DNA of 64,000 bases, from positions 1 to 64,000 of the IMG/VR virus record IMGVR_UViG_3300025924_000020; one strand, given 5' to 3'. The translations under genes were made by a program, and so were the position numbers. Each line of letters begins with the position of its first letter. Within the stretch, counting starts at the first letter, position 1. Shown piece by piece: positions 14,478-37,250 of this stretch. Under the pieces are notes generated by a model, which was given only the letters and a program-made list of their open reading frames with translations, was not told the origin of the DNA and ran no database searches. Source of the DNA: a virus. Taxonomy: Duplodnaviria; Caudoviricetes.

Positions 14478-14820
14478 CGCTCAAGCACAACACCTACCAG
14501 ATTCTATTTTAGATAAAGTTATTAAAGAACTTATCTATAAAGATCATTTATCATACGTAGTTAATAAACAAGATAGTACATTGAAAGTCTATGCGCAGTC
14601 AGATAGTTTACAACGTATGCAGATTAGTAATTACAAGCTAGTGGTACATAACGATGAGGTTATAGCGGCTAAATTACAGCAAACAATACAGATACAAGGT
14701 GATGAATTAAATTCACTAAAGAAGCAGTTACGAAAAGAAAAGTGGAGAAGAGTAATTGGTTTTTTTGAGGGTGGAGCAATAGGAGCAGGAATAGTTTTAA
14801 TTTTAAGCATATTTAAATAG
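14431..14820 (+). CDS. Secreted coiled-coil protein with C-terminal hydrophobic anchor (spanin-partner-like)
   Basis: Signal peptide ending SAQA, coiled coil, C-terminal GGAIGAGIVLILSIF. Confidence 0.4.
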   Translation: MKKLLGFLIVMLLSLSAQAQHLPDSILDKVIKELIYKDHLSYVVNKQDSTLKVYAQSDSLQRMQISNYKLVVHNDEVIAAKLQQTIQIQGDELNSLKKQLRKEKWRRVIGFFEGGAIGAGIVLILSIFK

Positions 14821-18632: not shown

Positions 18633-20926
18633 TGAAAAAGAATAAAGGTAAGAAGGCAAAGACCACAGACTTGTACGAAAAATTCAAGTATAAGACAAAG
18701 AATAAACAGAAGGCTGCTTTTGGTACACAATTAGGTGAAACTAGACAACCAGTACCTGGAGAAGATCCTAGTGCTAATCAAATAGATAAAATGGGTGTAC
18801 AGGCTGCAGGAGCAGTCAATCCACTCTTTGGAGCATTAGCTGAAACTGGTATTGCTACATCTAAAGCAGTAAGAGGTAATGCTCTTAATTCAAACAGGAA
18901 CACAGCTGCTGAAGCTATTGACCCATTTGGATGGGCTAAAGGGAATCAGAATGCTGGAGACTGGGCTAAGTCTATTTTCTTAGGTCCTGCTTCTTGGGCA
19001 GATAAAGGTAGTAGACGTAAACAAGCAGCATTACAGAATAACGCTGCAGCTAATGCAGCTATCAACCCTTCTCTAATAGCTAATGCTAAATTAAAGAAAG
19101 GTGGCTATGTTCTAGGTGGAGATCCGCCAATTACAGGAGATGAGGATAAAAAGAAAAATCCTTTCTATCCATTTACTAGAGAATCTTGGAAGAGCCAAGG
19201 AGTATTAGACAGCTTAGGAAGAGGAACTATGCTAAAAGGTAGCTATCAAAATTTCAATAAATATTTTGGTCATGCTATTCCCACTGGAGTAAATCCAGAT
19301 GATGAAACTTATTTTGGTAATCCTCAAGCTAATCCGTCTTCTTTGCAGGATTTGATTATCAAGAAGGCAAAACCAGTACAGTTTCACACAGTGACTGGAG
19401 AAACAGTAGCGCATAGTAAAATGGGATTAAAGAAAGGTGGTAAAGCCCTAGCTTCAAAATTAAATGTATTAGACGGTGGTAGTTTACGCTCTGTATCACC
19501 AACTGCAGTAGAGGTAGAGGCTGATGAACCATCTCAACAAGACTCAGTTGAACTAGAAAATGCTTTCGTAGATGATGGAGAGATCATAGATAATAAGAAT
19601 CGTGTATTCTCTGAAGAATTAGGGTATGCAAAAGAAGCTAAAAAGTTGGAAAAACAAAAGAGTAAGAACCCTAGATTCTCAGCTGCAAACAAACACATTG
19701 ATAGTAAATTAGATGCTCTATTTCAACATCAAGAAGAAAATAAAGACCTCATGGCTAGAAAACCTAAAGAGAAAGTAAAATCAATGGCAGCAGGAGGTAC
19801 TTATAGACCTGAAAGTTATAAGCGTAAACCTAATGATTCAGTAGAAATAGGTCCTAGAGCTACATCAAAACACTTAGAACCTAAAGTAAGACTAACTGAA
19901 GAAGAGGATGTAAGGAACAAGATGTCCTTTTTAGAGGGTGGTTATGTCCCTCCTGAAGATAGAGTAATGATCACCTCACAACAAAGATTAAGACGTAAGG
20001 CATTTGCAGACGGTGGAGACATGCGTGATGAACTTAGTAAAGATTTCTTATCTAGAGCTAGGGAAGCTGGTACTTTTACAGCCAAAGCTCCTACTTCCTC
20101 TTCAGTCTCTAAATCCAAGTTTAAAGCCCCTAAAATCAACGCTAGAGAGACTGCAGCTAATTTGGCTACCTTTGTACCCAATGTAGTGTCTGCGTTCGCC
20201 CAGCGCAATTTAAAAGGCCCTGTAAGCCCTATTCTAGAGCAGTCTAAACAACTAGATAGGGTAAGACCAGATGCGCAATTAGCTGAGATAGAACGTGAAG
20301 GTGGAGCTACAAACCAGCTTATAAAGAATAATACAGCTCAGGCTGGGGATTTGGCTTCTGCTTATGGTAATGTATTAGCTAAGAAAATAGCTGCTAAGAA
20401 CCAAGTTTACGGTCAAAATCAGGCTTTAAATGCTGAAATTCAAGGTAGAGAAGCATCTCTTAATGTGCCTATTGGAGCTAGAAATACTGATAGACTTAAT
20501 CAATTCAGACAAGGACAGGCTGATTTCTCTAATTTACAACAGAAATTAACTACCGAGAATGTGTCAAATCTAGCAGGTAAAGTACTAGGAAGAGTAAGAG
20601 AAGCTAATTTACAAGATTTAGATAGGTTCAAATTTGGTTATTCACAGAAACAATTTGAAGATTCAGGAATAAACAGAAGAGCTTATGAGAAGTCAGATCA
20701 GCGAATGAAGTCTGATTATGATAAGTTTATGCCTAAAGAACCTATGAAAGACGGTGGATCAATTCATATTAAGAAATCACATAGAGGATTGCTACACAAG
20801 AATTTAGGAGTAGCTAAAGGAAAGAAGATTCCCGCTTCTAAACTTAAAGTGAAATCCACAGATAGCGCTGCAGTTAAGAAACGTAAAGTATTTGCTCAGA
20901 ATGCTAAGAAATGGCACCACAAATAG
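18632..20926 (+). CDS. Virion cargo/ejection protein 1
   Basis: Low-complexity basic protein with repeated xxxGG motifs and C-terminal IHIKK...FAQNAKKWHH; position after the muzzle. Confidence 0.6.
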   Translation: MKKNKGKKAKTTDLYEKFKYKTKNKQKAAFGTQLGETRQPVPGEDPSANQIDKMGVQAAGAVNPLFGALAETGIATSKAVRGNALNSNRNTAAEAIDPFGWAKGNQNAGDWAKSIFLGPASWADKGSRRKQAALQNNAAANAAINPSLIANAKLKKGGYVLGGDPPITGDEDKKKNPFYPFTRESWKSQGVLDSLGRGTMLKGSYQNFNKYFGHAIPTGVNPDDETYFGNPQANPSSLQDLIIKKAKPVQFHTVTGETVAHSKMGLKKGGKALASKLNVLDGGSLRSVSPTAVEVEADEPSQQDSVELENAFVDDGEIIDNKNRVFSEELGYAKEAKKLEKQKSKNPRFSAANKHIDSKLDALFQHQEENKDLMARKPKEKVKSMAAGGTYRPESYKRKPNDSVEIGPRATSKHLEPKVRLTEEEDVRNKMSFLEGGYVPPEDRVMITSQQRLRRKAFADGGDMRDELSKDFLSRAREAGTFTAKAPTSSSVSKSKFKAPKINARETAANLATFVPNVVSAFAQRNLKGPVSPILEQSKQLDRVRPDAQLAEIEREGGATNQLIKNNTAQAGDLASAYGNVLAKKIAAKNQVYGQNQALNAEIQGREASLNVPIGARNTDRLNQFRQGQADFSNLQQKLTTENVSNLAGKVLGRVREANLQDLDRFKFGYSQKQFEDSGINRRAYEKSDQRMKSDYDKFMPKEPMKDGGSIHIKKSHRGLLHKNLGVAKGKKIPASKLKVKSTDSAAVKKRKVFAQNAKKWHHK

Positions 20927-20950
20927 GCTGTACTTAAACAAACTCAATAC

Positions 20951-20980
20951 AAAGGAATCTTACTGATTCCTTTTTTATTT
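20951..20980 (+). terminator. Intrinsic terminator
   Basis: AAAGGAATC-TTACT-GATTCCTTT followed by TTTATTT. Confidence 0.75.
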
Positions 20981-21024
20981 CAACAAAATTCAGTAAATTT
21001 GTCAAAAATATAATTTGGGTTTTT

Positions 21025-22902
21025 ATGCCTGACTATTCATCATTTAATTTAGATCAAGGTTCCTTTCAGCCTACTTATGCTGGAAGTCCTTTAGATACAG
21101 TCCTTCAAACTAATCAAGCTTTACAAGAACGACACTATAGGAATATTGCTGATGCTAGTTCTATTGAACTTGCACTTAAACAAATGCAGTCTAGTGCTCT
21201 TCCTGGAGCTAGGGATTATATTGCAGACCAAGTAGGTCAAATCCACGAACAATTGCAGAGTATGGCAAAGTCTGGAGCTGAAAATTCTACAGCCAAGATT
21301 CTTGCTTTGCGTAATGCATTCTTAGGAGATGAGGGTTTGATCCGTAGTCAAGCAATTGCTAAACAATATGGAGAAGCCCAGAAAACAATACAGGATATAG
21401 CTCAGAAGACTGGTAGAGAAGCGGTGTATCATAAACATGAATTGGACAACATAGCTAAAGCTAGTCCATACATCAAAGATGAAGAAGGAAATCAAGTGCT
21501 TAATCCACTCTACTCTAAACCATTTACTCCTAAGATTTCACCTTACTTAGATCCAACCATAGACTACAAACGTATTACAGACGAAATCAAACCTGACAAA
21601 TGGGTAGCTGAAGGTTTAACAGAGACTGGTAAGATACGATTCCAGAATGCTAAATATAAGATGGATAATGGTGAAATGGATATCCCTAAATTCTTAGAAG
21701 AAGCTAGTGCATCTGGTATTACACCACAGAAGATCAAAGCCCTTAAAGAAAGGCTATTTACAGCTTATAAGAATACATCAGCCTATGAACAACAAAAGGA
21801 ATTCTTTGGCAAAGATGATGAAGCTCAAAGAGAAGACTTGTTTAATTATGGATTGATTGGAACCTATCACCAACTAGATAAACACTATCATCAGCTTAGT
21901 GGTACAGGAGGTGGAGGAGGTGGGGCTGATACTCCATCATTAAGACCAGTACTAAGTCCAGCAGTGAAGAAGGAGGCTATTAGAGCTAATCTGCCTTGGG
22001 ACTTTGAGTTACCAAAAGCAGGAGAATATAGTGATCCTGAAGAAGCCAAAGGTAAAGCAATTGCTTCAATGCTAGGATTTAAACCAGATGGTGCTAAACA
22101 AGCCACACCACAAGAAAAACAAGCTGCTAATAAGAATTATGAGGATTTACTGCAATCAGCTGCTGAAGCTTATGGATTACCCGAAGCTGAAGTTTCAAAA
22201 TTGAAATCAAATAGAACTGAAGGGAAGAAAGTAATAGAGAAGTTCTTTGATGAGTTCTATCAACCAATTCTCAGCAATGCTCAAGCTACTGCAGTAGTAG
22301 ATAATAAGATGCTACCATTCTATGACAACTTACTTAAACGTAGTCCACAGAATTTGAATTATTATGACATGAACGGCAAGAAATACAACATGTTAGATAA
22401 TAATGGGAAAGTAAACAGTGACTGGGCAAAATTAACTGGTGGAGATCCTGATAAATTCCAGTATGGTAACACACTATCTCCAATTAACGTAGATGCTGGT
22501 TTAATCAAAGAAGATGACGCAGCAAGTACTCTACACTCAGTGACAGGTAAAGACAAAGATGGAAATGCTACCACATTCTATATGTCTAATCCAGCTGAAA
22601 TAGATAATGCAAGGAAGAATACAAACGTTGTGTACAATAAAGCTATTTCAAAGCCTGGGGTATTTATTCCAGTAAAAGGCGGTGGTGAAGCTAGAATACT
22701 AGTTGGTAAACAAAAAGAAAAAGCAGCTAGGTATTTACTTCAAACTGCAACAACTCATCCTGAGCAAGCTAATACAATCTTATCTTACATTAACGGACCA
22801 CTAATGGAATATAAAAATGGTGATCAATTAGAAGTTGTTACACCACAAGGCTTAGGTCAATTCTTACACGAAAATAATATCTCTCTATCCTACAAAGACT
22901 AA
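21025..22902 (+). CDS. Virion cargo/ejection protein 2
   Basis: Helical N-terminal half and Gly linker; lies between cargo 1 and the vRNAP. Confidence 0.55.
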   Translation: MPDYSSFNLDQGSFQPTYAGSPLDTVLQTNQALQERHYRNIADASSIELALKQMQSSALPGARDYIADQVGQIHEQLQSMAKSGAENSTAKILALRNAFLGDEGLIRSQAIAKQYGEAQKTIQDIAQKTGREAVYHKHELDNIAKASPYIKDEEGNQVLNPLYSKPFTPKISPYLDPTIDYKRITDEIKPDKWVAEGLTETGKIRFQNAKYKMDNGEMDIPKFLEEASASGITPQKIKALKERLFTAYKNTSAYEQQKEFFGKDDEAQREDLFNYGLIGTYHQLDKHYHQLSGTGGGGGGADTPSLRPVLSPAVKKEAIRANLPWDFELPKAGEYSDPEEAKGKAIASMLGFKPDGAKQATPQEKQAANKNYEDLLQSAAEAYGLPEAEVSKLKSNRTEGKKVIEKFFDEFYQPILSNAQATAVVDNKMLPFYDNLLKRSPQNLNYYDMNGKKYNMLDNNGKVNSDWAKLTGGDPDKFQYGNTLSPINVDAGLIKEDDAASTLHSVTGKDKDGNATTFYMSNPAEIDNARKNTNVVYNKAISKPGVFIPVKGGGEARILVGKQKEKAARYLLQTATTHPEQANTILSYINGPLMEYKNGDQLEVVTPQGLGQFLHENNISLSYKD

Positions 22903-22904
22903 TT

Positions 22905-25900
22905 ATGTCAGACGGTAAAGATAAACAATACACAAATATACGCCTAGCTGGAGGAGAGTCAAGTCCAGTAAATACACCTTACAATGGATCTAACTTAGGA
23001 CTCAACTATATACCAGGTACTCCTGGAGATCCATCTGGAGTAGAAGCATACCTAAATGAGAATCAAGGACTAGCTCACACATTTACTAATTGGGCAGCAC
23101 AATCGCTCAGTGGAGCTGTATTGGGCACCATTGAATCTGCTTCCTATCTTGCTGACCTTGAACAACTAAAGGATAAGATACAAGGTAGTGAGCAGGAATA
23201 TGATAACTGGCTTGCAAAGGCAATGAGAGAAGCTAAAGAGAATGTCAAAGAAGCAGCTCCTATTTATCGCTCTAAAGAGGGTCAGGAAACTTTCTCCCCA
23301 GGTTCTAGAAGTTTCTGGACTTCTAATTCACCAGATGTTATCAGTTCAGTACTATCCCTTCTTATTCCAGGAGCAGTTGCAGGCAAAGCGGGTAAAATGG
23401 CTGCAGCTGGATTTAAATTTGGTGAAGCAGCACAAGCGGGTAGTGAACTAGTAGCAGCTACACTAACTTCTCGTTATGCCGAATCCACTATGGAAGCTAA
23501 TCAAGTTTTCCAAGACGGCTACAAGCAATACTTACAACAAAGAATGCCCGATGAACAAGCTAGGGAATTAGCTGGACAAGCTGCATCACGTACATTTAAT
23601 ACTAACTGGATACTAGCAATACAGGATCTGTATCAATATAACTCTATTCTCAAAGGTTTTGGTAAGGCAGCTAAAGCAAAATCATTACTAGGTATCGCTG
23701 GTGAAACAGCTGGTCAAATGATTTCAGAAGGAGCTGAAGAAGGATTACAGTATGTATTCTCTGAAGAAGCTAAGAAAGCTGGTGCTAATAAAGGACACGG
23801 ATATTTTGGTGATGAGTTCTGGAATCAAAGATTATCAGATTACATAACTAGTGATGAATTTAAAACTAACGTAGCATTAGGGGCAGTTGGTGGTGGCGTC
23901 TTCGGTGGCGTTGGTCCTGCAGTACAAAAAGGAGCTGATATGCTCCGTAAGCAGAAGTCAGATATTATAGATTCACTAGCTAAAGAAAGAGCTAATCTAA
24001 TGAATGACTTTGGTACTTCTAAGAAGATAGATAGTGATAGATTAGCTAATAATGCTTTACAACACTTAGCTAATGGTAAACTAGATAAGTGGATAGATAC
24101 TGTAGAAGAGCTTAAGAAGGTTCCAGATTTAGAGCCAGATACAAGACGTGATCTGGATCAGCATAAGGATGAATTGACAGAACTTGTCAATATCAACTCT
24201 CAGATTAAAGATTCTAAGATTCCTAAAGACTTACAATCTACTGCAGTAGCTGATCATTATGATGTAATGAGAAGCACTAGGTTAGGTAAAGAACTAGAAG
24301 GTAAATTAAACGAGCAATATAACACACTCCCTAAACTAGGTTTACCAGAGAACTTACTTACTCTGAAGAAAGAAAAAATTAATTTAGAAGCTATCAAAGA
24401 ATTAGCTACTAAAGAACCTGCATATGCTCCATTAGCACAAATGTTAGCTAATAAGTTTCAAGATAACCTGACTGCTCTTGAACCAAACAAAGATTTAAGA
24501 AGAGATTTAGAAACACAATTAATAACACCTAAAGATAAGGAACTTGTACTGCTTAACAAGCAAATAGCACTTAATAACAGTCATGTTAGACAACTTAAGA
24601 ATAAGATAGCTAAATACTCTACACCAGAAGGTGTTGCTCAATTGTCTGCAGAGAAAGCACAGAAGACTGCTAATGAGGTAGCCAAAGCTGCTATAAACAA
24701 ACCTAACGTTACAGCGACTGAGATCAAACAAGCTCAAAGTACAGTTACAGATCCCCAAGTACAGCAACAGCTGGGGGAGAAACTAAACCAAATTGTAGAA
24801 GAACAGAAAGATAACAACAAAGCTACAGTAGACAGTGAGTTGAGTAAGTTAGAAGAACTTCCACAAGAAGTACTACCTACACCAGAAAACTTTAGTCCTG
24901 AAATGATGGAGCAATCTCCTGAAGATATTACTCCAGACATGCTAGAACCAAATCCTGAAGCGTCTCTAGAACCTTCTGAAGTACAAAAGACTGCAGCTAG
25001 CTTTGGTATTGGTAATGAGATATTGTCACAGCTAGAAGTAGAGAAACCAACTCCTAAACAGAAAGCAGTTACCAGTAAAGCTAAAACCAAAGAAAGAGTA
25101 CGTAATACACAACTTGAAGAAAGCACAGCCAAATCTTGGCTAAAAGAATATCAGTCACATAAGGATAAAGACGGTAATTGGGTAGAAGATAGGGACCCTC
25201 TTGGGTTTCCTATAGAGCAACAATACTTTGCTGCAGATGGAAGCTTAGTTCCTGCACATAAGATATTTGCTACAGATGAGAATGGAGTACTGCTGATTAA
25301 TACACCACAAATCAAAGTAGGAGATAAAGTTCTATTAGTTAGAGAAGATAGCTTTCCCTACACAATCACTAAAGGATTTAAACCAACTTCTGATTTAAAT
25401 TCAGTAATCAATGTTTATCAAGTAGATAAAAATGGACATAAAATAGGTGATAAGCCTTTGTTCCAATTAGACTCTGCAGATAGTCCAAACTTATCACCAG
25501 CGCAACAAGCAAGTAACTTACGTCTTAGACAACAAATCACAGTATGGGGGCCTAATGAATTAGTAACTACTATACAAGCAAAGAATATAGGTACAGTTAA
25601 ACGAGGTACTAACCTCCAGTCTATCTCTGTATTAGAGCATGATTACATGGGAGATAACTACGTTAAACTTCCTCATGGAGCAATCTTAGGTATCGTAGAT
25701 CATCAAGGGCACTTTACATTTAAAGGTGACAATATAGTTTCTCTACCTAAACAAACTCAGGATAAGTTAGATGAGTTAATGTTAAACTATGCAAAAGATG
25801 CGGAGAATTTAATAGGATCAACTATAGTAGCCAGGACAGCACCAGATGGAAGTTATCGCATGGAGACATTGACTTATCGTCAAATGACTCCTGAAGAAAC

Positions 25901-28900
25901 TAAATACGTTAAAGACAATCTAGCCTCCTCATTCAAAAGTAATGACTTTACTAATCTTAAAAAAGTAATGTACTTTCCTGAGTTATCAACAGGATACTTT
26001 ATTGCTAAAGATAAGAAAGGTGCCGCTAAAACTCCAGATCTATTCACGTTACCTAAAGCTACTAAAAATAACAGAATAACATTGTTTAAGAGTGGTACTG
26101 GTAAGTATACGTTAGGTATTCCACTTAAGTCTAGTCAGACAGGGAATAGGGTATGGACCACGTTAGAAGGAAACGATATTCAAAATTTCCTATCTAATAA
26201 ACCTGCCAGTATTACATTCCATGCTATTGTAGAAGGTAAATATGCTAAGCGTAAGGAAGTAAGAACTCCAGAACAGTATGCTAGTATTTTGTCTACTATG
26301 AATTCATTGATTGACTCTCAAAGTAGACAAGTAGATTTTGATCAAGTAAATAAAGAAGCTCTTTATACTGATCCAGTGACTAACCAAGAATACACGAACT
26401 ATTATGATTTCTTGAAGGCCACTAATACAGTACAGACATACTTGCGAGGATCGAACACAATTGGATTTGGTCAAGATAATTCTTTCTCTTATGGCTCAAC
26501 AACGGTATACCTGGACTCTTCGCCTAAAGATATTAAGACTGACATAGATCCTCAGACTGAAGAGCTAGAAAAAGTGGAACAAACACCTCCACCTAGCGCA
26601 CCAATAGAGTTAGGCCCTACAACTCCAATATCTCCAGAAGAAATAGAAGAAGAGTTTGGTCCTAAGTATAAACATTTCTCATTTGAGAATACTACCTTCA
26701 ATGTAATAGGAGAGAAAGAACTTCAATGGTTTAAGAATAACTACGGAGAAGAGTTCTTGGATATTGCGATAGGTGTAGATAAGTTTATTGGTGCTAATGG
26801 AGTAGAAGCTTTTGGTAGTTATTACAATGCATTGGTAACTCTAGCTCAGTATGCTCCAGAAGGAACGACTTATCATGAAGCTGGGCACTTTGTATTTGAT
26901 CCAAAGAATAAGTTAATTACAAAACTTGAGCGTGAAAAGATACTTAAAGAAGCTAAAAAGATTTATGGGGAGCTAAAGGACAACTATCTTGAAGAAAAAA
27001 TTATGGAAGATTTTGAGAGATATAAACTCTCAGATGGCAAGTATCTTCCAGAGGTTTCTAGAACTAAAAGCTTCTTCTCTCGTATTCTTCAATTCATTAA
27101 GAAATTGTTAGGCTATAAGACAGAGATTCAAAAACTATTTGAAAAGATAGATACGCCTAATCTATCTATTGAAGATAGAAAGACACTTTATGAGAATAGA
27201 TCAAAGTTAGTTGATCCAGATCAAATTCTTAATAAAAGATTACCTGGCTTTATTTCTTCTCGTTATGAACAAGAAGCTCTTATTTCAGCTAGAAGTAAAG
27301 CTATCGCGATTGCTTCAGAAGGTTTAAAGCAGGTGAGTGATGTAACTAAGTTCTTGAGTAATAGTATTAATCTAACTAAAATTCTTGATCAAGTTAAGGA
27401 CTATTATGCTAGACTAGCACAGAATTTAGAAGCTGTAGGAGATAAGCGAAATAAAGAGCAGACACTACAGTTAATGACCTTAAATGCAATGGGAGTAACT
27501 AAGACTCCTGGATATGAGAAATATCAAGGATCTTGGGATGATATAACTTATGGACCTATTAAAGAAGATGGATTTAAAAGTAAGCTATTACAGGTATTCA
27601 GTGACCTAGGATTTGTAGTCAAGTATGATCTAGACAAAGTAGAAGCTCAGGAGCAAGATGAAGCAGAGAGAATCTATGACGTAGACTCAAGTTTGATCAA
27701 CCCATCTTCCTCTATTTCAAATAGAGTTAGATTATTGTTGCATTCTATTCCATCCCCAGTTGTAGATTCTAAGGGGCAAGTAATAGATAGTCAAAAGACG
27801 CTATTTGGAGATATAAAACCTCTTGATTTCAGATCTGCAGATGCAATGTTGGCACTTAAGCTAAGTGATGCTATTGACCCTTATGAGAGGCTACAAAGTT
27901 TAGCTAAGCTTAACCCAATAGCTAGAGTAATTCTCAATAAACTTGATGAAGTTAAATCTTCAGGAGATAATCAAACTTTCACTGAAGTGATGGTTAAATA
28001 TCGTAGGGATAGTAATGACAAGAAGACTATTCTACTTCAGGAGAAAGAAGTGTTTGTACCTGTAGCTGAGCGTGGGCCAGACGGTCAAGAAACTACTAGG
28101 GTATATACTTCTAGATTCATAGATGCTAACCGTAATTCTGTATTTCGTACTATTCTAAATAACTGGAGGTCAGAAGCAGAAAGAGTGAACCTTATTACTC
28201 CTACTGGTGAACTGACTACTAAAGCTAAAAAAATAGCTACTGACTTTGCTAGCCTCAAGGCTAAACAAAATACAATAGCGTTTGAACCGTTACTTAGTCA
28301 ATTCCAAACAATATTAAAAGAACTTGGAGTAACGCTTCCAGATGGTCTTATTGCTGAACTACAGTCACTAGACACTCAATATGTTAAAGCTGTACAACAA
28401 GCTAAAGCACGTGAATTAAAACTTAAGAGTTTAGTATTTGGTGAAAACAGCGCTAGCTTGGAGGCTTTAATCAACACTTTTAATAGTGATATACAAGTCA
28501 GCTCTCCATTTGATGGTAAGACTAACGTGCTTGAAAAATTAGCTAAAGCATCAGCTATCTATTATGATTCAGTTAAGACTGGGGCATATCTGAATGAGAA
28601 TGGTGACTTGGAATATCCAATAAATCTACCATCTTATTTGAGTGAGTTTGCTAGTTTATTAAATAGTCCTGATAAGCTAAATGAATGGGTTAATACCTTA
28701 GAACAAGATGAATTCTATAAAGATAATCAATTCATAGCTACTCTTAAACAAGCTATTAGAGGAAAGCAACTAAGCAAAATCAGATTTAGCTTACTCTCTG
28801 CCATTCGTGATAAAGATAGTGATGCAAAGATGTTTGGAGATAGAAGTGAGATTGACTCATTAGTCTCACGACTGGTGTCTTATTTTAATAATGAAACTCA

Positions 28901-31900
28901 CAATGATAAGTCAGAGTATGCTTCAATCTTTATAGGTACTCCTGCTAATAAAGCTAAAGATCCTATGATGAATCTTCCTAAGAAGAGAGGAGATGAAGCG
29001 TATGCATTCCTGAAAAAAGTTTTAGCTAATACTGTACTTAATGAGATTTCTAGAATACAGAATATCAAAGATAGTCTCGGTAAACCTAGGGTAGGTAATA
29101 ATCCACTTCCACAAGAAATAAACAATCTTAAGAATGCTACTAAATTCATTTACTTACCTGAGCTAAATGAGATAGAAGGATTAGCAGATTCATTATCTAA
29201 TGGTGAGATATCTGCAGACAACTATAAAACTGCTAAGGCTAAACAAGAGCAAGTCATCAATAATTGGATTGACCAAAAGTACGATTCATTCTTGAACCTT
29301 CTTGAATCAAATGATATCATTAGGGTGAATAGAAAGAGTGGTAGAGTAGTTAATATCTCCAACACTCGTATTCCAAAAGATATAATCAATCTTTATGGTA
29401 CCCCAGCTAAATTCTTGAAAGAGTTCTTCTACAATGACACAGCATACAGACTGGAAATGTCTAAAGTCTTCATGGGAGATTTGGCATTCTATAAACCAGG
29501 TGTAGATGACTATTTTAAGCGTATGTACCAGCTAGTAACTCCAGGTTACAAAGCTTATACTGATAAGGAAACTAGTATAGTAAGAGGTATTTATCCAGCA
29601 CAGAAGAAGATTGAATTGCCTGAGATTAATAGCCTTAAAGAACTGGGTTTGTCTGACTCTGTAGCTAATAATTATAAGAGAGGTGTTAATAAGACAGATG
29701 CACAATCCTTATCCACCATTCATGGTTATAGGACCCTAGCTAAAGCTCTTGGCTTATGGAATGACTTTACTCATGAGAAAATCTATCAGGTAGCTTGGAA
29801 GTACAATGAGCCAGCTAGACAACAGATAAAGAAGTTAACTCTACTTGGAGAAATTACTGAACAGGAAGCCAAAGATCTTAATGGTATTCTATTCAATTTA
29901 GATCTACAACCTCTTAAACCATTCCAGTATAACGATAGATTTATTGACTTACCTAATGGTAAGAGAATGCTATTAAAGGAACAGTTTAAGGATTCTATTA
30001 CCCCTATTTTACCTGAATTAGCTAATACTCATCAAGGCTACAAAGAACTGCACGATTATATGCTAGGTAATGGCTTTGATGTACTATCGGCTGAAGATGC
30101 TGTAAAAGTAGGCAGCTATGGAGTTCTTGATATGACTCAACCTGCAGAAGCTTGGCAGAAAAGAAGAGTAAGTTTAGATGATATTCGTTTTCCTCAGTTT
30201 ATGCCTTCTAAAAAGAAGGAAGAAACTTCAGGTACACAGTTACATAAACTTATTATGGGTGATGTACAGGATAAGACAGACTATAGCCTTAATGATACTA
30301 AGATCTCTGGAGTTGACTTGAAAGCTGATTATAATAAACTTTGGGTAGAAAAACTAGAGAATGGAGTAACTAAGCTTAAGGATTTACTAGGAATGGGAGA
30401 TGATTTCAAGTTCTCAAACAATCCTAATAAGAAGATTGAGCAGTTACAGAAACTTCAGTTAGTCCTTAAACAAGAGTTAAACCAGAGAGATCTAAATGAT
30501 AATTATAAAGATGCTATTAATTTAACCCTATCTCAACTAAAGGGTATAGAGTTTAATATGCCTCTTTCCTTCCCTCAAATTACTAAGCCATTTGAAGGAA
30601 TCATTGTTAAGTTGTTTGATAAGTACGTTACTAGTCAAAAGAGTACTGGTTACACAGCTGTAAATTTAGCCGATTTTGGAGTACAGAAGAGTGATGAACT
30701 TAGATATGTACGTAATGAAAATGGACAGCTAGTCGAAGCTGAAATCGGTATTGCTATCAATCCAAGTGAATTTGGATTACGTTATGGCGAACATATCTCG
30801 CCTACAGGTAGAGTGATATGGGATAAATTAAATAATAACCAACAAGAAGCGTTACAGTACATCGCTTATCGTATTCCAACTTCCAATAAGAGTTCGATGC
30901 TACCAGTTCGTGTGGCTATGATCTTACCTAAGACCATGAATAATATAGTCATGATCCCTGGTGAAACTACTCTACAAATGGGTTTGGACTTTGATGTGGA
31001 TAAAACACAGTTACTACGTAGAGTAACCAAGGATGGTAAAATAGATAAGGCTCACGTAGATACTAAGTTATTTAATATCTATTGGTCAGTATTGACAAAC
31101 AAAGAGCATTTGAACGCAATGCTAACACCATTATCAACTGCTCGCTTAGAAGCAATTAAAGACAACTATACCAAACGTGGTATCTTAACTTCAGAGACAA
31201 ATCAATCACCCTTCACTCTAGAAGCCGATATTAAAGCTCAAACAAAGAATAGAGAAGAGAAGGTAAAAGTTGGTGGTGCTTCTAGAGCAGCTACCGCACA
31301 TAGTGTTATTCAGATGCTTGGTGAAGAAGCAATACAAATAAATCCTCTATTTGATATTAAGATAGCTCGTAAAGGACCTCTTAGATTTGGTCATATGACT
31401 TCTCAAGATGGTAGTTTAATATCTGAGAACTTAGGAGAAATACAGCAGGCAGCACTTGATGCGGCTAAAACGCCATTGTTAGCTATTTTCAATATTACCA
31501 AGAAACTTCTTTCTCCAGCAGAGACATTAGTGATGCTTGGTTATGATCTTAGAACTGTTACAGACTTCTTCATGCAGCCTGTAGTCAGAGAATGGTCTAG
31601 TAACTATATAAAAGAAAATGAAGACGATTTAGCTGCTACTGAAAGCTTCTTAGAAGCTCATCCAGAAGTGGGTAGTGTCATCAACAATTTACGTAAGCAA
31701 GGAAGTAGACCTACACTTAGCTTAGATGCTCTTAGTCAAGCGTTAACTTCTAAAGTAGGTGAGAATCCTATACACGATGCGGCTGTACTTCTTGAACTAG
31801 GTAACTTATTGCAAGCAGGTAAATTGTTGTCTAACTTCACGAATGTGCTTAGCTTAGATACTTTTGGAGATACATCATCCATAGAATCGTTACAAGTTAT

Positions 31901-34900
31901 GGCTCAACAAGTAATGGAGTCTACTAACACAGATAACAACTTCTATATTGATCCTAGAGTATTTAGTATGGAGAAAGCTCCAACTAATGCTAAGAGAATT
32001 GCTGCCTTCCATGAGTATAGCTTAGAGAAACCACTTGTATTAGCAAATGAGATATTCCCTAGTACTAATATTCACTACCAAGCAGCTAGGGATTATATTC
32101 TTGAAGCTCTTACTTTACGTAAGACTAACAAAGATTTGCTAACGAAAATTAACAAGTTTATACACTTCTATAAATTACAGCACGACTCAGCGCTGTCCCT
32201 TGCACTTGGTAAAGTATCACCTACTAAAGAGCCATATACTTCTAGGTGGAGATTTACAGAGCCAGGAAACACTATTGTTGAGTACTTTAGCAAGTTTATG
32301 AAGAACGCTAAGAAGAATCATCCTGGACTGTTCAATGAACAAGGAATGATACAGAATAAACTACTAGCTAGTATACAAATTCAAACTTTCTCGAATAACG
32401 ATAAGTTAGCTATGTTAACTGTAAATAATGTTACAGATGATAACAATAGCGATCTAGTATTGGCTTGGAATGATTTGCTTAATGCTAAATCAGAGGAAGT
32501 TAGAACCTTAGCCCACGATTTAATTAGATATGCAATTTATACGTCTGCTTTTAATTACAGTCCTACTTCATTTGCAGACTTGATTCCAACTGATATCTGG
32601 AAAACAACTGGATTGGCTAATTATTGGGAAGACAATAGAAATTCTAGTATTGACAATGAAGGTCTACTACTTAATTTTGTTAGACATAATTACAAAAAGA
32701 TTAAGTTCTTCCCTCAATTCTTTATTACCTCTAATGGTAGATCACAATCTATCATAAAATCAAGTAGGGTAATGGATGATAAAGGTATACTTCAAGCTTT
32801 TCAAATTAGTAAGGAATACAAGCAGGCTGAGGTATTACCTAGATTCGCTATTGTAAAAGGAAGATTGTATGAACAATCACCAGCCAATCCATATTCCTAT
32901 AAACAATTACAAAGTGCTGGTGGAGATAACTTTTATGAAGTATCAACAGATGGAAGAAATCTTTCAAGAAATCCAGTAAACAAAGATGATGGCTCTCCTA
33001 ATCCCTGGAAGAATGCTATTGTACGTAAAGATGAAGAACTAAAAACTACTGATCCTAGACTACAAGTTGAGAATAGGCTAAGAACTTTTGAGCTAGGTAC
33101 TTTAGAAGGTAAACCTCAAACCGATCAAGAAAATGATAACCTTCACAACAACATGATTAATTTTCCTGAAAAAGGAATGGTTAATGGTGGTGAGACATTT
33201 GAAGAAGCTTCTGATCGTGTAATTTCTCTAATGAAAGATTTAACTAAGAATGCTGCAAATAACAGTGTTATAGTAACTCACAATGCTGTATTTGGAATTA
33301 TTAAAGTATGGGATCAAGAAGGTAGGCCAGATTCTCTAAATAAAGAGCAGAGAATAAAATATACCAAACAGGATAACACAGTAGCAACTGGTTCACACTT
33401 TACAATTAAGACTAGTAAAGGAAAATTATTTGTGGTTAGGCATGGTGAAACCACAGATAATGTAGCTAAAGTGTTTAGAACTCCATCAGCTCAGCTTACT
33501 CAGAAAGGTATAAAGCAGGCTGAAACTGCAGCTAAGGCACTAGCTATATTCCAGATCCCAATGATTATTACGTCACCAATGGAAAGAGCTGTAGAGACTT
33601 CTAGAATCATTTTAAAAGCTCAAGGGGAAGTACAGAAATTCAATCAACCTGCTTTGTCAGATAGTGATATAATAGCTACAAATCCATTTATAGAGTACTA
33701 TCTACCTAACCAAAGCAATGATCCTAAAACTGTACTTGAACATCTTATTAAAGATGAAACTAATCCAGAAAACAGGCAAGCATTACAACATTTACTTGAT
33801 AACGTATCTAAAATAGACGCTAAAATAGATGTTACTGCAGATGATATGTTGGGTTTTATGGGTAGATATGAAGTCATCACAAATAATGGTAATCTTGTTA
33901 GTTCAGTAGTTAAAATAAACCCTAACACTAATTCCATAGATTCTCAAGCAAGTGCTAGGGCTGTAATACATCATGAATTGGAACATGCATTCACAGTAGG
34001 TGTGTTAAAGAATCCACAGACTGAATTGGAGAAAAACTTCAACACAAATTTAAGTAGAGTATTAGAAGAAGCTAGACAAAAATTAGGTATAGTCTACTAT
34101 ACTGAAAATAAATTTGAATTTATAGCTGAGTTAGCTTCAAATGAAGCCTTTAGACAGAAACTTAGAGGGGCCGACTTGTGGAGTAGAATTATTCGTTCAA
34201 TACGCAAGGTATTAGGAATGAAAGACTCCTACGATAAACTTATAGAACAAAGGTATGAAGTTATTTCACAAGGAGAAAAACTAGAAAGAAGTAGTGGAGT
34301 ACTGGGTAAACCTGAAAATAAAAAACCAGGTAAAAAGCAGTTAACTATTTTTGAAAGCATGTTATCTTCTCTGGACTCTAGAGTTAGAGAATTAAAGAGA
34401 AGAAGAGGTAAAGAATCTGCTATAGAAACTGAAGCTGAATTAAAAGTACTCAAAGAACTAGCTAAGAAGAACGAGTCTGCAATGGCAGTCAGATACTTAG
34501 TGTATGTCAATAAGGAAATAGCTAAGCTTAAATCTATCTATGACTTGATGGATAAGACTCCAGAGAAGTTGAATGCTAAATTAATAGCTCCAATGTATGA
34601 TCAATTACTATCATACAATTTACTTGACGAGTTACTGAAAGATGCTAAGACCAACCCAGATGCGTATGTGGGTAAGACTGGTGATATCAAGCAATTTATC
34701 ACTGAAGTAAATAATCTAAGAGGTGAAGTGTCTGATTTACGACTAAAATTAGAGCACCTTATTCCATATAGAGTAGCTAGTTTCATTAAAGATAATATTC
34801 GTCAAGGTCAGAGCTTTGAAGAGGTAGTAGATTCCCTTAAAGTAGCAAATGGTGATGTAAGCTATATAGCTAGATGGTTAACTCCATTTATTGAAGTGAA

Positions 34901-37250
34901 TGATGACACTGTTAAAGCATTTGCTCAACGTTATGCTGAAATTGATATGGAAGCGTATCGTAAGACTCAAGAGGAATTATACAAATTTGATAAAGTACAG
35001 CAGAAGACTACTGTTAATTTAGGTAGCAACAGACGAGTAACAATAGAGTATACTTCAACTGGTGTAAATAAGGCTCTTGATGATTATGACAAGTGGTTAA
35101 AAAAGAAGGGAAAGAACCCAGGTTCTATTAGAGATAAATTTGATCCTATCCTAGATAAAGCCTCCTTTAATAAGGATACGAGTGAAGGTATTTCTTTTAT
35201 AGCTCCTTGGACTAAGGAGGGTAAAGCAATCCTTTCCATTAAAGAAGGATCAGAAGACTATCCGTTAAAGCAGTTGTATGAAACTATTGTTCTAAATTAT
35301 CTCAAGTCTCAAGAAGAAATTAAACTTCCATCTCAACGCCCAGGATTACGTATACCAACTATTGGAAGAGATGTAATGGAAGGATTCTTGAAAGAAAAAG
35401 GTATTAAGGAGACTGCTGGTATGATGAAAGAGCAATTCCTGAATAACTTCATTGAAAGATTCGATGATAATGAGTATCAACAAGTAGACCAACATGGTAA
35501 TGTAATTAAGGCTATTCCATTACGCTATACTTCTAAACAGGATGGTAAGGATGGTAGATTAAACCTAAACGAAGTAAGTTTAGATGTAGCTTCCACCACT
35601 ATGTTATTTCGTCATGAAATGATTAAAAGACCTATGCTTCTAGCAATACAAGATGATGTAGAATTAGCTAAAACACAATTGGCTCAGCGTGAAGTAATGC
35701 AAACTAAACGCATTGAAGCAAGTGGTTTAACTCCATTCCTATCTTCTGAAAGAGAAGGTGTCGTATTAGAGAATGGCAAATATCAGACTATAAAAGGTTT
35801 AGAATCTAAAGCTTACAATGCTTTTCAAGACTTGATTGATCGTAAACAGTACGGTATAGTTAAGAAACGTGAAGGAGATATCAAAATTGGAGAGAAGAAA
35901 GTATCAGCTTCTAAAGCCCTAGATGCTTTCTTAAGATTCAGTGGATTTAGAATCATGTTTGGTAAAATTGCTATTCCTTTAGCTAACTGGAGTGTTGGTG
36001 AACTCACAATGATTAAAGAAATGATTGGAGGGAATATTATTGATTACAAAGATTATCTCTATGGACAGAAGAAGTATAATCAAGTAGCTCTTTCATCACT
36101 TTCTGATTTAGGAAGAAGAGCTAAACAAACTGAGTGGGGTAAGTTATTCACTTACTTCAACCCAATGGATAATCTACGTCCAGTTAATACACTAGGAATA
36201 GACACGACTTGGATGAGAACAGTATGGCATAAGATTATCTCTACTGGAGGTCATACAGTTGAGTATAAACTAGCGGTAAACGCTTTAGGAGCTGTAATGA
36301 ACAGGTTTAAGGTAGTTAATCCTGAAGGTAAGTTAGTCCCTATGGATCAGGGAATACACATCTCTGATGCTGGTAAATTAACTCTAAAATCAGGTTATAA
36401 ATATGCTGGAAAACAAGGTAAGCAATATGAAAAGCCTAAGACTGAAATTAGTGACAAGGATATTAACGAAGTAATACAATATACTCTACGTACTTATCAG
36501 CTAATGAACGGTGTGTATAATCAAAGTGATAAATCAGCTGCTCAAGCTTATACAGTAGGCCGTCTAGTAACCTTTATGCGTAATTGGTTAGTTCCAGGCT
36601 TACAAGCTAGATGGAATACAAAGCATTCAGATCAAAGATTAGGTATGGAGAATGAAGGATACTACATTTCTTCTTTAATAGCCTTCAATAATATTTATGG
36701 TAAGAACGGATTCTTGAAGGGTACATTGGATTCTCTCAAGATGCTGTTCTGGTTAGGAGCTAGTGATCCTACAACTCTACTTTTACCTAATGAATTAGCT
36801 CTTTCTCCTGAAGAGCAAGATGATTTGATCAATATGCGTAAAGCCAATATCAGAAAGACCCTATTTGAACTTTACATGATTGCTGGATTAGGTTTGCTTA
36901 TCTTTGCTGGATATGATGACGATGATGATAGTTACATGAAGTATATGGCAGCTAGAATCAAACGTGAATTAACCACTTATTATGATCCTACTACAGCTTG
37001 GGATGTGTTAAGATCACCTACAGTAGCCCTTTCAACTATAGAAGCTACTTCTAAATTGTTAGGTACAATGACTGATGGTGGGTGGAATTATCTTACAGGG
37101 AATGAGCAAGAGATGATTAAGTCAGGAGCTTACAAGGGATACGGTAAAGCAGAAGCAGCTTTCTGGAGAGCTTCAGGATTAGATTTCATGAAGCAGTTTG
37201 AGGATATAGATCGTAAGACAGATTTTGTACTTAAAGGAGCATACAGATAA
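22905..37250 (+). CDS. Giant virion RNA polymerase polyprotein (4781 aa) with two zincin-like HExxH motifs and a histidine phosphatase domain
   Basis: YRIPT...GLDFDVDK catalytic DxDxD (DFDVD at 30987-31001), HEAGH (26874-26888), HELEH (33972-33986), RHG (33438-33446). Confidence 0.88.
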   Translation: MSDGKDKQYTNIRLAGGESSPVNTPYNGSNLGLNYIPGTPGDPSGVEAYLNENQGLAHTFTNWAAQSLSGAVLGTIESASYLADLEQLKDKIQGSEQEYDNWLAKAMREAKENVKEAAPIYRSKEGQETFSPGSRSFWTSNSPDVISSVLSLLIPGAVAGKAGKMAAAGFKFGEAAQAGSELVAATLTSRYAESTMEANQVFQDGYKQYLQQRMPDEQARELAGQAASRTFNTNWILAIQDLYQYNSILKGFGKAAKAKSLLGIAGETAGQMISEGAEEGLQYVFSEEAKKAGANKGHGYFGDEFWNQRLSDYITSDEFKTNVALGAVGGGVFGGVGPAVQKGADMLRKQKSDIIDSLAKERANLMNDFGTSKKIDSDRLANNALQHLANGKLDKWIDTVEELKKVPDLEPDTRRDLDQHKDELTELVNINSQIKDSKIPKDLQSTAVADHYDVMRSTRLGKELEGKLNEQYNTLPKLGLPENLLTLKKEKINLEAIKELATKEPAYAPLAQMLANKFQDNLTALEPNKDLRRDLETQLITPKDKELVLLNKQIALNNSHVRQLKNKIAKYSTPEGVAQLSAEKAQKTANEVAKAAINKPNVTATEIKQAQSTVTDPQVQQQLGEKLNQIVEEQKDNNKATVDSELSKLEELPQEVLPTPENFSPEMMEQSPEDITPDMLEPNPEASLEPSEVQKTAASFGIGNEILSQLEVEKPTPKQKAVTSKAKTKERVRNTQLEESTAKSWLKEYQSHKDKDGNWVEDRDPLGFPIEQQYFAADGSLVPAHKIFATDENGVLLINTPQIKVGDKVLLVREDSFPYTITKGFKPTSDLNSVINVYQVDKNGHKIGDKPLFQLDSADSPNLSPAQQASNLRLRQQITVWGPNELVTTIQAKNIGTVKRGTNLQSISVLEHDYMGDNYVKLPHGAILGIVDHQGHFTFKGDNIVSLPKQTQDKLDELMLNYAKDAENLIGSTIVARTAPDGSYRMETLTYRQMTPEETKYVKDNLASSFKSNDFTNLKKVMYFPELSTGYFIAKDKKGAAKTPDLFTLPKATKNNRITLFKSGTGKYTLGIPLKSSQTGNRVWTTLEGNDIQNFLSNKPASITFHAIVEGKYAKRKEVRTPEQYASILSTMNSLIDSQSRQVDFDQVNKEALYTDPVTNQEYTNYYDFLKATNTVQTYLRGSNTIGFGQDNSFSYGSTTVYLDSSPKDIKTDIDPQTEELEKVEQTPPPSAPIELGPTTPISPEEIEEEFGPKYKHFSFENTTFNVIGEKELQWFKNNYGEEFLDIAIGVDKFIGANGVEAFGSYYNALVTLAQYAPEGTTYHEAGHFVFDPKNKLITKLEREKILKEAKKIYGELKDNYLEEKIMEDFERYKLSDGKYLPEVSRTKSFFSRILQFIKKLLGYKTEIQKLFEKIDTPNLSIEDRKTLYENRSKLVDPDQILNKRLPGFISSRYEQEALISARSKAIAIASEGLKQVSDVTKFLSNSINLTKILDQVKDYYARLAQNLEAVGDKRNKEQTLQLMTLNAMGVTKTPGYEKYQGSWDDITYGPIKEDGFKSKLLQVFSDLGFVVKYDLDKVEAQEQDEAERIYDVDSSLINPSSSISNRVRLLLHSIPSPVVDSKGQVIDSQKTLFGDIKPLDFRSADAMLALKLSDAIDPYERLQSLAKLNPIARVILNKLDEVKSSGDNQTFTEVMVKYRRDSNDKKTILLQEKEVFVPVAERGPDGQETTRVYTSRFIDANRNSVFRTILNNWRSEAERVNLITPTGELTTKAKKIATDFASLKAKQNTIAFEPLLSQFQTILKELGVTLPDGLIAELQSLDTQYVKAVQQAKARELKLKSLVFGENSASLEALINTFNSDIQVSSPFDGKTNVLEKLAKASAIYYDSVKTGAYLNENGDLEYPINLPSYLSEFASLLNSPDKLNEWVNTLEQDEFYKDNQFIATLKQAIRGKQLSKIRFSLLSAIRDKDSDAKMFGDRSEIDSLVSRLVSYFNNETHNDKSEYASIFIGTPANKAKDPMMNLPKKRGDEAYAFLKKVLANTVLNEISRIQNIKDSLGKPRVGNNPLPQEINNLKNATKFIYLPELNEIEGLADSLSNGEISADNYKTAKAKQEQVINNWIDQKYDSFLNLLESNDIIRVNRKSGRVVNISNTRIPKDIINLYGTPAKFLKEFFYNDTAYRLEMSKVFMGDLAFYKPGVDDYFKRMYQLVTPGYKAYTDKETSIVRGIYPAQKKIELPEINSLKELGLSDSVANNYKRGVNKTDAQSLSTIHGYRTLAKALGLWNDFTHEKIYQVAWKYNEPARQQIKKLTLLGEITEQEAKDLNGILFNLDLQPLKPFQYNDRFIDLPNGKRMLLKEQFKDSITPILPELANTHQGYKELHDYMLGNGFDVLSAEDAVKVGSYGVLDMTQPAEAWQKRRVSLDDIRFPQFMPSKKKEETSGTQLHKLIMGDVQDKTDYSLNDTKISGVDLKADYNKLWVEKLENGVTKLKDLLGMGDDFKFSNNPNKKIEQLQKLQLVLKQELNQRDLNDNYKDAINLTLSQLKGIEFNMPLSFPQITKPFEGIIVKLFDKYVTSQKSTGYTAVNLADFGVQKSDELRYVRNENGQLVEAEIGIAINPSEFGLRYGEHISPTGRVIWDKLNNNQQEALQYIAYRIPTSNKSSMLPVRVAMILPKTMNNIVMIPGETTLQMGLDFDVDKTQLLRRVTKDGKIDKAHVDTKLFNIYWSVLTNKEHLNAMLTPLSTARLEAIKDNYTKRGILTSETNQSPFTLEADIKAQTKNREEKVKVGGASRAATAHSVIQMLGEEAIQINPLFDIKIARKGPLRFGHMTSQDGSLISENLGEIQQAALDAAKTPLLAIFNITKKLLSPAETLVMLGYDLRTVTDFFMQPVVREWSSNYIKENEDDLAATESFLEAHPEVGSVINNLRKQGSRPTLSLDALSQALTSKVGENPIHDAAVLLELGNLLQAGKLLSNFTNVLSLDTFGDTSSIESLQVMAQQVMESTNTDNNFYIDPRVFSMEKAPTNAKRIAAFHEYSLEKPLVLANEIFPSTNIHYQAARDYILEALTLRKTNKDLLTKINKFIHFYKLQHDSALSLALGKVSPTKEPYTSRWRFTEPGNTIVEYFSKFMKNAKKNHPGLFNEQGMIQNKLLASIQIQTFSNNDKLAMLTVNNVTDDNNSDLVLAWNDLLNAKSEEVRTLAHDLIRYAIYTSAFNYSPTSFADLIPTDIWKTTGLANYWEDNRNSSIDNEGLLLNFVRHNYKKIKFFPQFFITSNGRSQSIIKSSRVMDDKGILQAFQISKEYKQAEVLPRFAIVKGRLYEQSPANPYSYKQLQSAGGDNFYEVSTDGRNLSRNPVNKDDGSPNPWKNAIVRKDEELKTTDPRLQVENRLRTFELGTLEGKPQTDQENDNLHNNMINFPEKGMVNGGETFEEASDRVISLMKDLTKNAANNSVIVTHNAVFGIIKVWDQEGRPDSLNKEQRIKYTKQDNTVATGSHFTIKTSKGKLFVVRHGETTDNVAKVFRTPSAQLTQKGIKQAETAAKALAIFQIPMIITSPMERAVETSRIILKAQGEVQKFNQPALSDSDIIATNPFIEYYLPNQSNDPKTVLEHLIKDETNPENRQALQHLLDNVSKIDAKIDVTADDMLGFMGRYEVITNNGNLVSSVVKINPNTNSIDSQASARAVIHHELEHAFTVGVLKNPQTELEKNFNTNLSRVLEEARQKLGIVYYTENKFEFIAELASNEAFRQKLRGADLWSRIIRSIRKVLGMKDSYDKLIEQRYEVISQGEKLERSSGVLGKPENKKPGKKQLTIFESMLSSLDSRVRELKRRRGKESAIETEAELKVLKELAKKNESAMAVRYLVYVNKEIAKLKSIYDLMDKTPEKLNAKLIAPMYDQLLSYNLLDELLKDAKTNPDAYVGKTGDIKQFITEVNNLRGEVSDLRLKLEHLIPYRVASFIKDNIRQGQSFEEVVDSLKVANGDVSYIARWLTPFIEVNDDTVKAFAQRYAEIDMEAYRKTQEELYKFDKVQQKTTVNLGSNRRVTIEYTSTGVNKALDDYDKWLKKKGKNPGSIRDKFDPILDKASFNKDTSEGISFIAPWTKEGKAILSIKEGSEDYPLKQLYETIVLNYLKSQEEIKLPSQRPGLRIPTIGRDVMEGFLKEKGIKETAGMMKEQFLNNFIERFDDNEYQQVDQHGNVIKAIPLRYTSKQDGKDGRLNLNEVSLDVASTTMLFRHEMIKRPMLLAIQDDVELAKTQLAQREVMQTKRIEASGLTPFLSSEREGVVLENGKYQTIKGLESKAYNAFQDLIDRKQYGIVKKREGDIKIGEKKVSASKALDAFLRFSGFRIMFGKIAIPLANWSVGELTMIKEMIGGNIIDYKDYLYGQKKYNQVALSSLSDLGRRAKQTEWGKLFTYFNPMDNLRPVNTLGIDTTWMRTVWHKIISTGGHTVEYKLAVNALGAVMNRFKVVNPEGKLVPMDQGIHISDAGKLTLKSGYKYAGKQGKQYEKPKTEISDKDINEVIQYTLRTYQLMNGVYNQSDKSAAQAYTVGRLVTFMRNWLVPGLQARWNTKHSDQRLGMENEGYYISSLIAFNNIYGKNGFLKGTLDSLKMLFWLGASDPTTLLLPNELALSPEEQDDLINMRKANIRKTLFELYMIAGLGLLIFAGYDDDDDSYMKYMAARIKRELTTYYDPTTAWDVLRSPTVALSTIEATSKLLGTMTDGGWNYLTGNEQEMIKSGAYKGYGKAEAAFWRASGLDFMKQFEDIDRKTDFVLKGAYR

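Follow-up and report, generated by a model that had tools for sequence, protein, structure and literature searches.

Does this locus encode a complete histidine phosphatase whose two halves have changed places, and what would such an enzyme do inside a giant phage protein? The window analysed here is a stretch of 64,000 nucleotides which forms the start of a 94,962-bp uncultured virus genome, complete according to CheckV. The initial annotation had placed a circularly permuted histidine phosphatase domain at bp 33060-33620, inserted in a virion RNA polymerase polyprotein. The peptide motifs it quoted were found in frame within a giant open reading frame, P0002. The domain limits it gave lie inside the inserted unit, but slightly wider limits (33009-33644) fit better when the orthologous protein P0022 is taken into account. 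The unit and its parts are:

22905..37250, plus strand: giant open reading frame P0002, host of the phosphatase domain (4781 aa; ORF list and translation)
33009..33644, plus strand: inserted unit, permuted phosphatase with short linkers (aa 3369-3580; collinearity with P0022 and AlphaFold2 model)
33048..33299, plus strand: first half, the usual C-terminal part, with strand 3, cap, helix and strand 4 carrying the second His (PF00300 positions 67-153, E 5.9e-11; PhoE 77-155)
33426..33650, plus strand: second half, the usual N-terminal part, with the RHG strand, helix, strand 2 and second-Arg helix (PF00300 positions 1-75, E 1.3e-16; PhoE 4-66)
33396..33446, plus strand: new junction, with strand 5, a tight SKG turn and strand 1 ending in RHG (DSSP of the model; translation)

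The boundaries of the halves were derived from a six-frame profile search of the genome. The match of the whole segment to PF00300 (His_Phos_1) came in two pieces and scored 90.5 bits, where the cut-off is 21.7. Scanned alone, the first 120 aa matched PF00300 positions 72-153 (E 1.8e-9), and for the 93 aa that follow the match was to positions 1-77 (E 3.4e-16). These are the two swapped segments that the initial annotation had expected. Using phmmer against PhoE (1EBB), residues 176-237 of the query aligned with residues 4-66 of the chain, and residues 57-132 with residues 77-155. The order of C-terminal half followed by N-terminal half is real; the E-values exclude chance. In addition, a profile was built from canonical-order relatives, and the native sequence was cut at the junction by script and its halves rotated. 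This de-permuted copy aligned as a single domain (positions 3-174 of 201, 125 bits), and the copy in native order gave two swapped pieces on the same profile.

The two halves might instead come from two different domains that have degenerated, or from a tandem pair, and not fold together; separate degenerate domains were the alternative that the initial annotation itself had named. Tandem canonical arrays do exist (P0122, P0147, P0055, P0139 and P0145), and the permuted query matches across their junctions. However, these tandem proteins bear the usual proton-donor Glu and fall outside the permuted clade. Moreover, PF00300 positions 67-153 and 1-75 are each covered once and leftover pieces are absent; outside the two halves, about 13 inserted residues were found upstream and 0 downstream. 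The single coverage, the prediction of one confident domain and the free-standing genes that contain exactly the permuted unit (both described below) contradict this alternative, which we consider highly improbable. The DNA at 33009-33644 encodes a complete branch-1 histidine phosphatase (PGM/PhoE/CobC-like) that is circularly permuted.

AlphaFold2, with an alignment of 22 permuted relatives as input, predicted one compact domain (mean pLDDT 92.5, pTM 0.88), in which every 10-residue block from model residue 11 to 200 had a pLDDT above 93. The model begins with strand 3 (residues 12-14), a cap helix (33-45) and a long helix (58-75), continues with strand 4 carrying the second His (80-84), two helices and strand 5 (124-129), and ends with strand 1, a short helix, a helix at 159-172, strand 2 (180-182) and the second-Arg helix (186-205). 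This is the canonical series, rotated. DSSP assigned strand 5 to residues 124-129 and strand 1, ending in RHG, to residues 132-138, separated by a three-residue turn. According to the model and the translation, this new junction stands in for the usual last strand and free termini. In histidine phosphatases the sheet order is 3-2-4-1-5-6, with strand 5 antiparallel. Since strand 5 is the antiparallel neighbour of strand 1, a hairpin can connect them directly. In the model the chain begins at strand 3, passes by way of the cap to strand 4, which carries the second His, and on to strand 5, and after the tight turn continues with strand 1 and RHG as far as the second-Arg helix; the catalytic residues would converge on one phosphate pocket. 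The sheet of known histidine phosphatases has six strands, one of them antiparallel (PMC12051542). Five were predicted here, the usual sixth edge strand being missing from the model, so that the domain, as modelled, is a homologue with altered connectivity rather than a six-stranded sheet in canonical order.

The comparison by AlphaFold and Foldseek that the initial annotation had proposed gave a divided outcome: the confident single domain was obtained, but Foldseek of the permuted model against the PDB gave no match at E <= 0.001. As a control, a canonical-order sibling taken from a viral contig (L097:444-1037) was folded (pLDDT 81.8, pTM 0.79), and with this model Foldseek returned 307 matches at E <= 0.001, the best rows having TM scores of 0.74-0.79. 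Because the control matches well, the weak scores of the permuted model are attributed to its chain order and not to a different fold. The fold class agrees, as the best 15 VIA matches were all members of the histidine phosphatase family. That order-dependent structure searches miss the permuted domain is a caution for automated annotation. Taken together, the profile swap, the PhoE swap, the one-piece alignment of the de-permuted copy and the AlphaFold2 domain bear out the circular permutation claimed earlier.

The insertion of the domain into the giant protein was likewise upheld by comparison with P0022, an orthologous giant protein of 4829 aa from another metagenome, which is collinear with P0002 from end to end and lacks the domain at the P0002 site. 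The genes at its locus (L103) are arranged as in the window, with a muzzle gene, a 798-aa gene, a 671-aa gene, the giant gene and then minus-strand genes, which include a metallophosphoesterase, a kinase and a Nampt-like gene. The segments correspond as follows:

P0002 19-1387 and P0022 24-1392: collinear
P0002 1362-3368 and P0022 1574-3626: collinear
P0002 3581-4772 and P0022 3634-4819: collinear
P0002 3368-3569 and P0022 1356-1552: phosphatase domain, 43% identity

The residues flanking the P0002 insert (aa 3368 and aa 3581) have their counterparts at positions 3626 and 3634 of P0022, 7 residues apart, and P0022 carries the phosphatase domain about 2000 residues nearer to its N-terminus. Together these two observations indicate a true, movable insertion. 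The site varies further in other proteins. In P0005, P0006, P0008 and P0088 no more than about 12 residues separate the domain from the preceding equivalent of P0002 residues ~2700-2706, just past the DFDVD motif, and in P0004 and P0035 it is present in the N-terminal quarter. In addition, free-standing genes of about 190-200 aa consist of exactly the permuted unit. One of these, P0031 (192 aa), starts with an ATG that overlaps the preceding TAA and ends with a TAA, 10 nt upstream of a gene of 3108 aa; L008 has a similar stop-bounded stand-alone ORF. Direct repeats around the P0002 insert were short only, at the level expected by chance.

In the canonical fold, the loop that was opened to give the new termini comprises about 10 residues (PhoE 66-77). 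Since this loop is short, the termini of the permuted unit should be close together, as is needed for a domain inserted in a linker, and with such adjacent termini the unit could be fitted into linkers of other proteins. The close termini may be the reason why the permuted form has spread. Rewiring of a fold can thus make an enzyme a movable insert, found at varied sites in collinear proteins of ~4800 residues.

To find related loci, a single-protein query gave no match and an alignment query gave relatives. An exhaustive HMMER search of 1.84 billion representatives yielded 2719 matches at E <= 0.001, of which 161 reached E <= 1e-10. Sorting of 155 proteins gave 127 with the permuted order, 12 with the canonical order and 16 fragments or tandem arrays. 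The smallest protein bearing the domain has 176 residues and the largest more than 6000. The permuted form is therefore no one-off, being represented by at least 127 clusters at 50% identity, and the family is large and apparently undescribed. As the window derives from an uncultured viral genome, the permutation might be an artefact of the assembly or annotation of a single metagenomic contig. However, the same order occurs in 127 representative clusters and on about 20 independent contigs from different samples, which leaves this explanation a practically negligible probability.

The carriers are crAss-like phages from metagenomes. A crAss_MUZ gene is present upstream in loci L003, L004 and L103, and 6 of the 10 IMG/VR records carrying the domain had a crAss_MUZ match at E <= 0.001, 5 of them over the Pfam cut-off; several of the remaining, negative records are fragments. 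The permuted domain was always located inside or adjoining the giant-protein gene block. Megablast and tblastn against 50,697 GenBank phage records, which include cultured crassviruses, detected no permuted unit; tblastn gave three matches only, each to the N-terminal-type half alone.

Canonical-order relatives with the signatures of the family were found in eight clusters and in L097. The signatures common to both orders are Thr at the Glu site, mostly Asp or Asn at position +2, and RHGET then E/T, D/E-N. The canonical-order relatives (P0087, P0091, P0097, P0134, P0146, P0096 and P0105) are proteins of 490-991 aa, and P0091 has weak HTH-type Pfam matches. In a tree made from rotated permuted domains and canonical-order domains, the permuted and the signature-bearing canonical forms grouped together against most Glu-bearing enzymes (SH-aLRT 98), and in a quick tree the canonical-order siblings were nested within the permuted forms. 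Multiple origins or reversion were rejected, as a tree with the permuted forms as one group was 34 log-likelihood units better (p-AU 0.84). The data are compatible with a single origin of the permuted form, which the AU test does not reject, and loss of the Glu probably preceded the permutation. Tandem arrays are the classic intermediate in permutation by duplication. The tandem canonical arrays mentioned above were rejected as intermediates on account of their Glu and their position outside the clade, and serve as precedent only. We regard the structural and evolutionary part of our explanation as hardly open to doubt.

The conservation of the catalytic residues was counted in the 127 permuted representative clusters, which are mutually <= 50% identical. 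The positions in the window are:

33438..33443, plus strand: Arg-His of RHG (aa 3512-3513), the His being the predicted phospho-acceptor (Arg in 127/127, His in 126/127)
33279..33281, plus strand: second catalytic His, in VTHN (aa 3459; His in 121/127)
33585..33587, plus strand: second phosphate-pocket Arg (aa 3561; Arg in 125/125 ungapped rows)
33459..33461, plus strand: pocket Asn3519 (Asn in 123/127)
33084..33092, plus strand: Thr3394 at the usual proton-donor Glu position (codon 33084-33086) and Glu3396 two positions on (aligned to PhoE)

The presence of the catalytic His and Arg residues (Arg3512-His3513, Arg3561 and His3459) agrees with the initial annotation, as does the Thr at the Glu position: in the phmmer alignment Thr3394 corresponds to the Glu of the PhoE motif LREIHLG (the E82/83 position). 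At this site the permuted clusters have Thr (108), Ala (10), Met (3), Ser (2) or Gly (1), and an acidic residue in 0 of the 124 ungapped clusters. Two positions on, Asp (91), Glu (8), Asn (18) and Lys (5) occur, an acid being present in 78%. Three other residues are conserved specifically in this family: Asp3518 (116/127), Arg3525 (124/127) and Glu3430 (116 Glu and 9 Asp). In HFP the core is formed by R8, H9, R58 and H149, and these four core residues are kept in all histidine family phosphatases; the proton donor differs between families (PMC12051542).

In our reading, this residue pattern suggests selection for catalysis or for tight phosphate binding, with an acid that is non-canonical or lacking. 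The domain would act as a phosphatase through a phospho-His intermediate, and on the residue pattern we consider it likely that it is catalytically active. The domain could also be a dead or single-turnover module that binds phosphate or a phosphorylated ligand, or that accepts phosphate once. The replacement of the PhoE-type Glu by Thr, Ala, Met, Ser or Gly in all 124 ungapped clusters fits such a module, as does the absence of the nearby +2 acid from about a fifth of the clusters. However, conservation of 95-100% for the nucleophile His, both Arg residues, the second His and the pocket Asn in clusters this divergent is the pattern expected of selection on catalysis. Proton donors are known to vary across the families of the superfamily (PMC12051542), and Asp3518 (91%) and Glu3430 (98% acidic) are candidate substitute acids in the alignment. 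We therefore judge a dead or single-turnover module to be rather unlikely, and an active phosphatase remains our preferred reading. With the Glu absent throughout the family and a +2 acid in 78% only, the domain may turn over slowly or not at all. That the Glu has been lost uniformly makes the permuted family a useful case for the study of histidine phosphatase chemistry.

The RNA polymerase content that the initial annotation assigned to P0002 was confirmed: residues 2300-2800 match crAss-like phage genes in 112 records, with E-values down to 7e-13, and several of these records are annotated as putative RNA polymerase. P0002 thus contains both crAss-type RNA polymerase homology and an Asp-x-Asp-x-Asp motif. 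A phmmer search of the PDB with the whole of P0002 matched no polymerase structure. Two motifs lie outside the phosphatase domain:

30987..31001, plus strand: DFDVD motif in the RNA polymerase region of P0002 (aa 2695-2699)
33972..33986, plus strand: HELEH zincin-type motif, ~110 aa past the insert and outside the phosphatase domain (context)

The match of P0002 to Peptidase_M91 was weak (E 0.0016) and under the cut-off. The zincin zn2 near the domain is a separate module, confined to P0002 and P0022. A fixed partnership with a zincin module was rejected, as 17 proteins have the module, in 3 of these it is directly adjacent and in P0022 it overlaps. Upstream of P0002, a 1270-aa ORF gave a weak C-terminal BLASTP match to a muzzle-type protein (E 4e-5), and Pfam and PHROG gave no match on the ORFs in this region. 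As this muzzle-like gene matches crAss_MUZ weakly and has no Pfam or PHROG match, the phage is taken to be a divergent crAss-like relative.

In the crassviruses that have been studied, the vRNAP subunits and other cargo proteins are packaged and leave the virion in a partly unfolded state, before the DNA or together with it, and early genes are transcribed by the vRNAP (PMC10136315). By analogy, the phosphatase would be carried into the cell within a virion-packaged giant protein that contains the vRNAP, and would refold in the host, where it would be present ahead of phage gene expression. We lean towards delivery of the giant protein, with its phosphatase, by the virion, somewhat less firmly than towards catalytic activity. 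The functional reading of the initial annotation, an injected enzyme that acts before phage genes are expressed, is plausible. The cargo delivered by crAss-like phages along with their DNA, at a stage of infection that is poorly understood, would then include one more probable enzyme.

The domain may serve the phage particle or the polymerase rather than the host, with the giant protein, the end of the packaged DNA or nascent early transcripts as its targets. It is always within or beside the giant-protein gene block, and in P0005, P0006, P0008 and P0088 it lies next to the segment with the metal-binding motif of the polymerase. However, its position relative to the polymerase differs by thousands of residues between proteins and it can be a separate gene, which argues against a fixed structural partnership, and we consider such a role unlikely. 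An equally unlikely proposal, in our view, is an injected effector that refolds past the tail and dephosphorylates a host signal or immune messenger before phage expression, the permutation having been selected for plugging into linkers. Candidate messengers in that case are a phospho-relay protein or a phosphorylated nucleotide. The explanation that we prefer as a whole, a permuted insert that is an active phosphatase and is delivered by the virion with the giant protein, is a probable one. Counting against it are the lack of a Foldseek match for the permuted model, the missing Glu, the NCBIfam scores below every equivalog cut-off and the weak crAss_MUZ match of the muzzle-like gene in the window.

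Our confidence in any one particular substrate is low. The PhoE/CobC-sized cap and the conserved Arg3525 suggest a small, multiply charged phosphoester, for instance a nucleotide. This extra Arg lines the predicted pocket region. The missing Glu, for its part, hints at a substrate whose leaving group is good, or at slow turnover. Among the NCBIfam models the nearest were of the CobC, GpmB and dPGM types, all far under their equivalog cut-offs, and PADLOC gave no match. An open, capless site of the SixA type was rejected, as the cap is about as long as that of PhoE.

In the full-text literature, the coverage of which was incomplete, no paper was found on a circularly permuted histidine phosphatase or phosphoglycerate mutase, nor was a histidine phosphatase found reported in crAss-like giant proteins. 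A search combining crAss-like vRNAP with phosphatase gave one review only, in which phosphatase domains of tail spikes are mentioned. The domain would be the first natural circular permutant that these searches found in the much-studied histidine phosphatase (PGM-like) superfamily.

SixA, a phosphohistidine phosphatase and minimal member of the superfamily, has the same catalytic core and gave a weak NCBIfam match (E 3.8e-7), but unlike the phage domain it has the canonical order and no cap. The canonical-order phage relatives also have their halves in the normal order, unlike the P0002 domain. With the crAss-like vRNAP and cargo proteins (phi14:2 gp66 and the crAss001 cargo) P0002 has the polymerase region in common, and their gene position after the muzzle gene is matched in the relatives of P0002.

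The best matches in both sequence and fold were with the group of PhoE, CobC, iPSP1 and Aquifex HFP (1H2E, 6E4B, 4IJ5 and 9MMH). The phage domain has in common with this group the RHG nucleophile, the two Arg residues, the second His and the pocket Asn, and its cap, which joins strand 3 to the long helix, is comparable in size. In contrast to this group, the order of its chain is rotated and the new termini fall between the second-Arg helix and strand 3; the model lacks the sixth strand, and Thr takes the place of the Glu. It also has an extra conserved Arg 12 residues past the nucleophile and is embedded in a giant protein. By descent, as judged from sequence, the domain is a member of branch 1 of the histidine phosphatase superfamily, nearest to PhoE, CobC, iPSP1 and HFP.

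Free-standing genes for the permuted histidine phosphatase, of approximately 190–200 amino acids, were found at two loci, in both cases directly 5' of a giant-protein gene:

L098:5001-5579, free-standing permuted phosphatase gene
L008:~1722-2351, free-standing permuted phosphatase gene

Since these standalone genes directly precede the giant-protein genes, their arrangement shows that gene fission or fusion has occurred at the borders of the permuted domain.

Within the giant protein of the window, two zincin-type motifs were recognised:

26874-26888, HEAGH, at amino acid 1324
33972-33986, HELEH, at amino acid 3690, about 110 amino acids downstream of the phosphatase insert

The HELEH motif coincided with a weak match to Peptidase_M91 (E 0.0016). 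The module containing HEAGH was found again in 17 carrier proteins; in three of these it lies immediately beside the phosphatase domain, and in P0022, the 4829-amino-acid orthologue, it overlaps that domain. These zincin-type modules may be processing proteases. Further domains accompany the permuted phosphatase in two other giant proteins, namely a PD-(D/E)XK nuclease domain in P0012 (residues 823–1009) and a DnaJ domain in P0027 (residues 345–388), which suggests that the accessory modules of the carriers are diverse.

In carrier phage IMGVR_UViG_2651869516_000092 (L085), the permuted domain is interrupted by two in-frame TGA codons (2130–2132 and 2241–2243), both at positions occupied by Trp or Phe in relatives. 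This alignment suggests that TGA is read as Trp in the late genes of this phage.

Upstream (5') of the giant gene the window contains three large ORFs:

14820-22902, three ORFs of 1270, 764 and 625 amino acids

Searches of all three against Pfam and PHROG gave no match, and resemblance to a crAss muzzle protein, at E 4e-5, is confined to the C-terminus of the 1270-amino-acid ORF. The phage represents a highly diverged lineage of the crAss-like group.

Siblings of the permuted domain with the halves in canonical order sit within proteins of 490–991 amino acids:

L097:3-2000, canonical-order sibling
L102:157-2235, canonical-order sibling (P0091)

The C-terminal part of P0091 gave weak HTH-type matches, to GcrA and sigma-70 region 4. 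Canonical histidine phosphatase domains also occur in tandem, with two to four per protein, in P0055, P0139, P0145, P0122 and P0147; in P0139, Ala-Arg replaces the Glu motif in all tandem copies.
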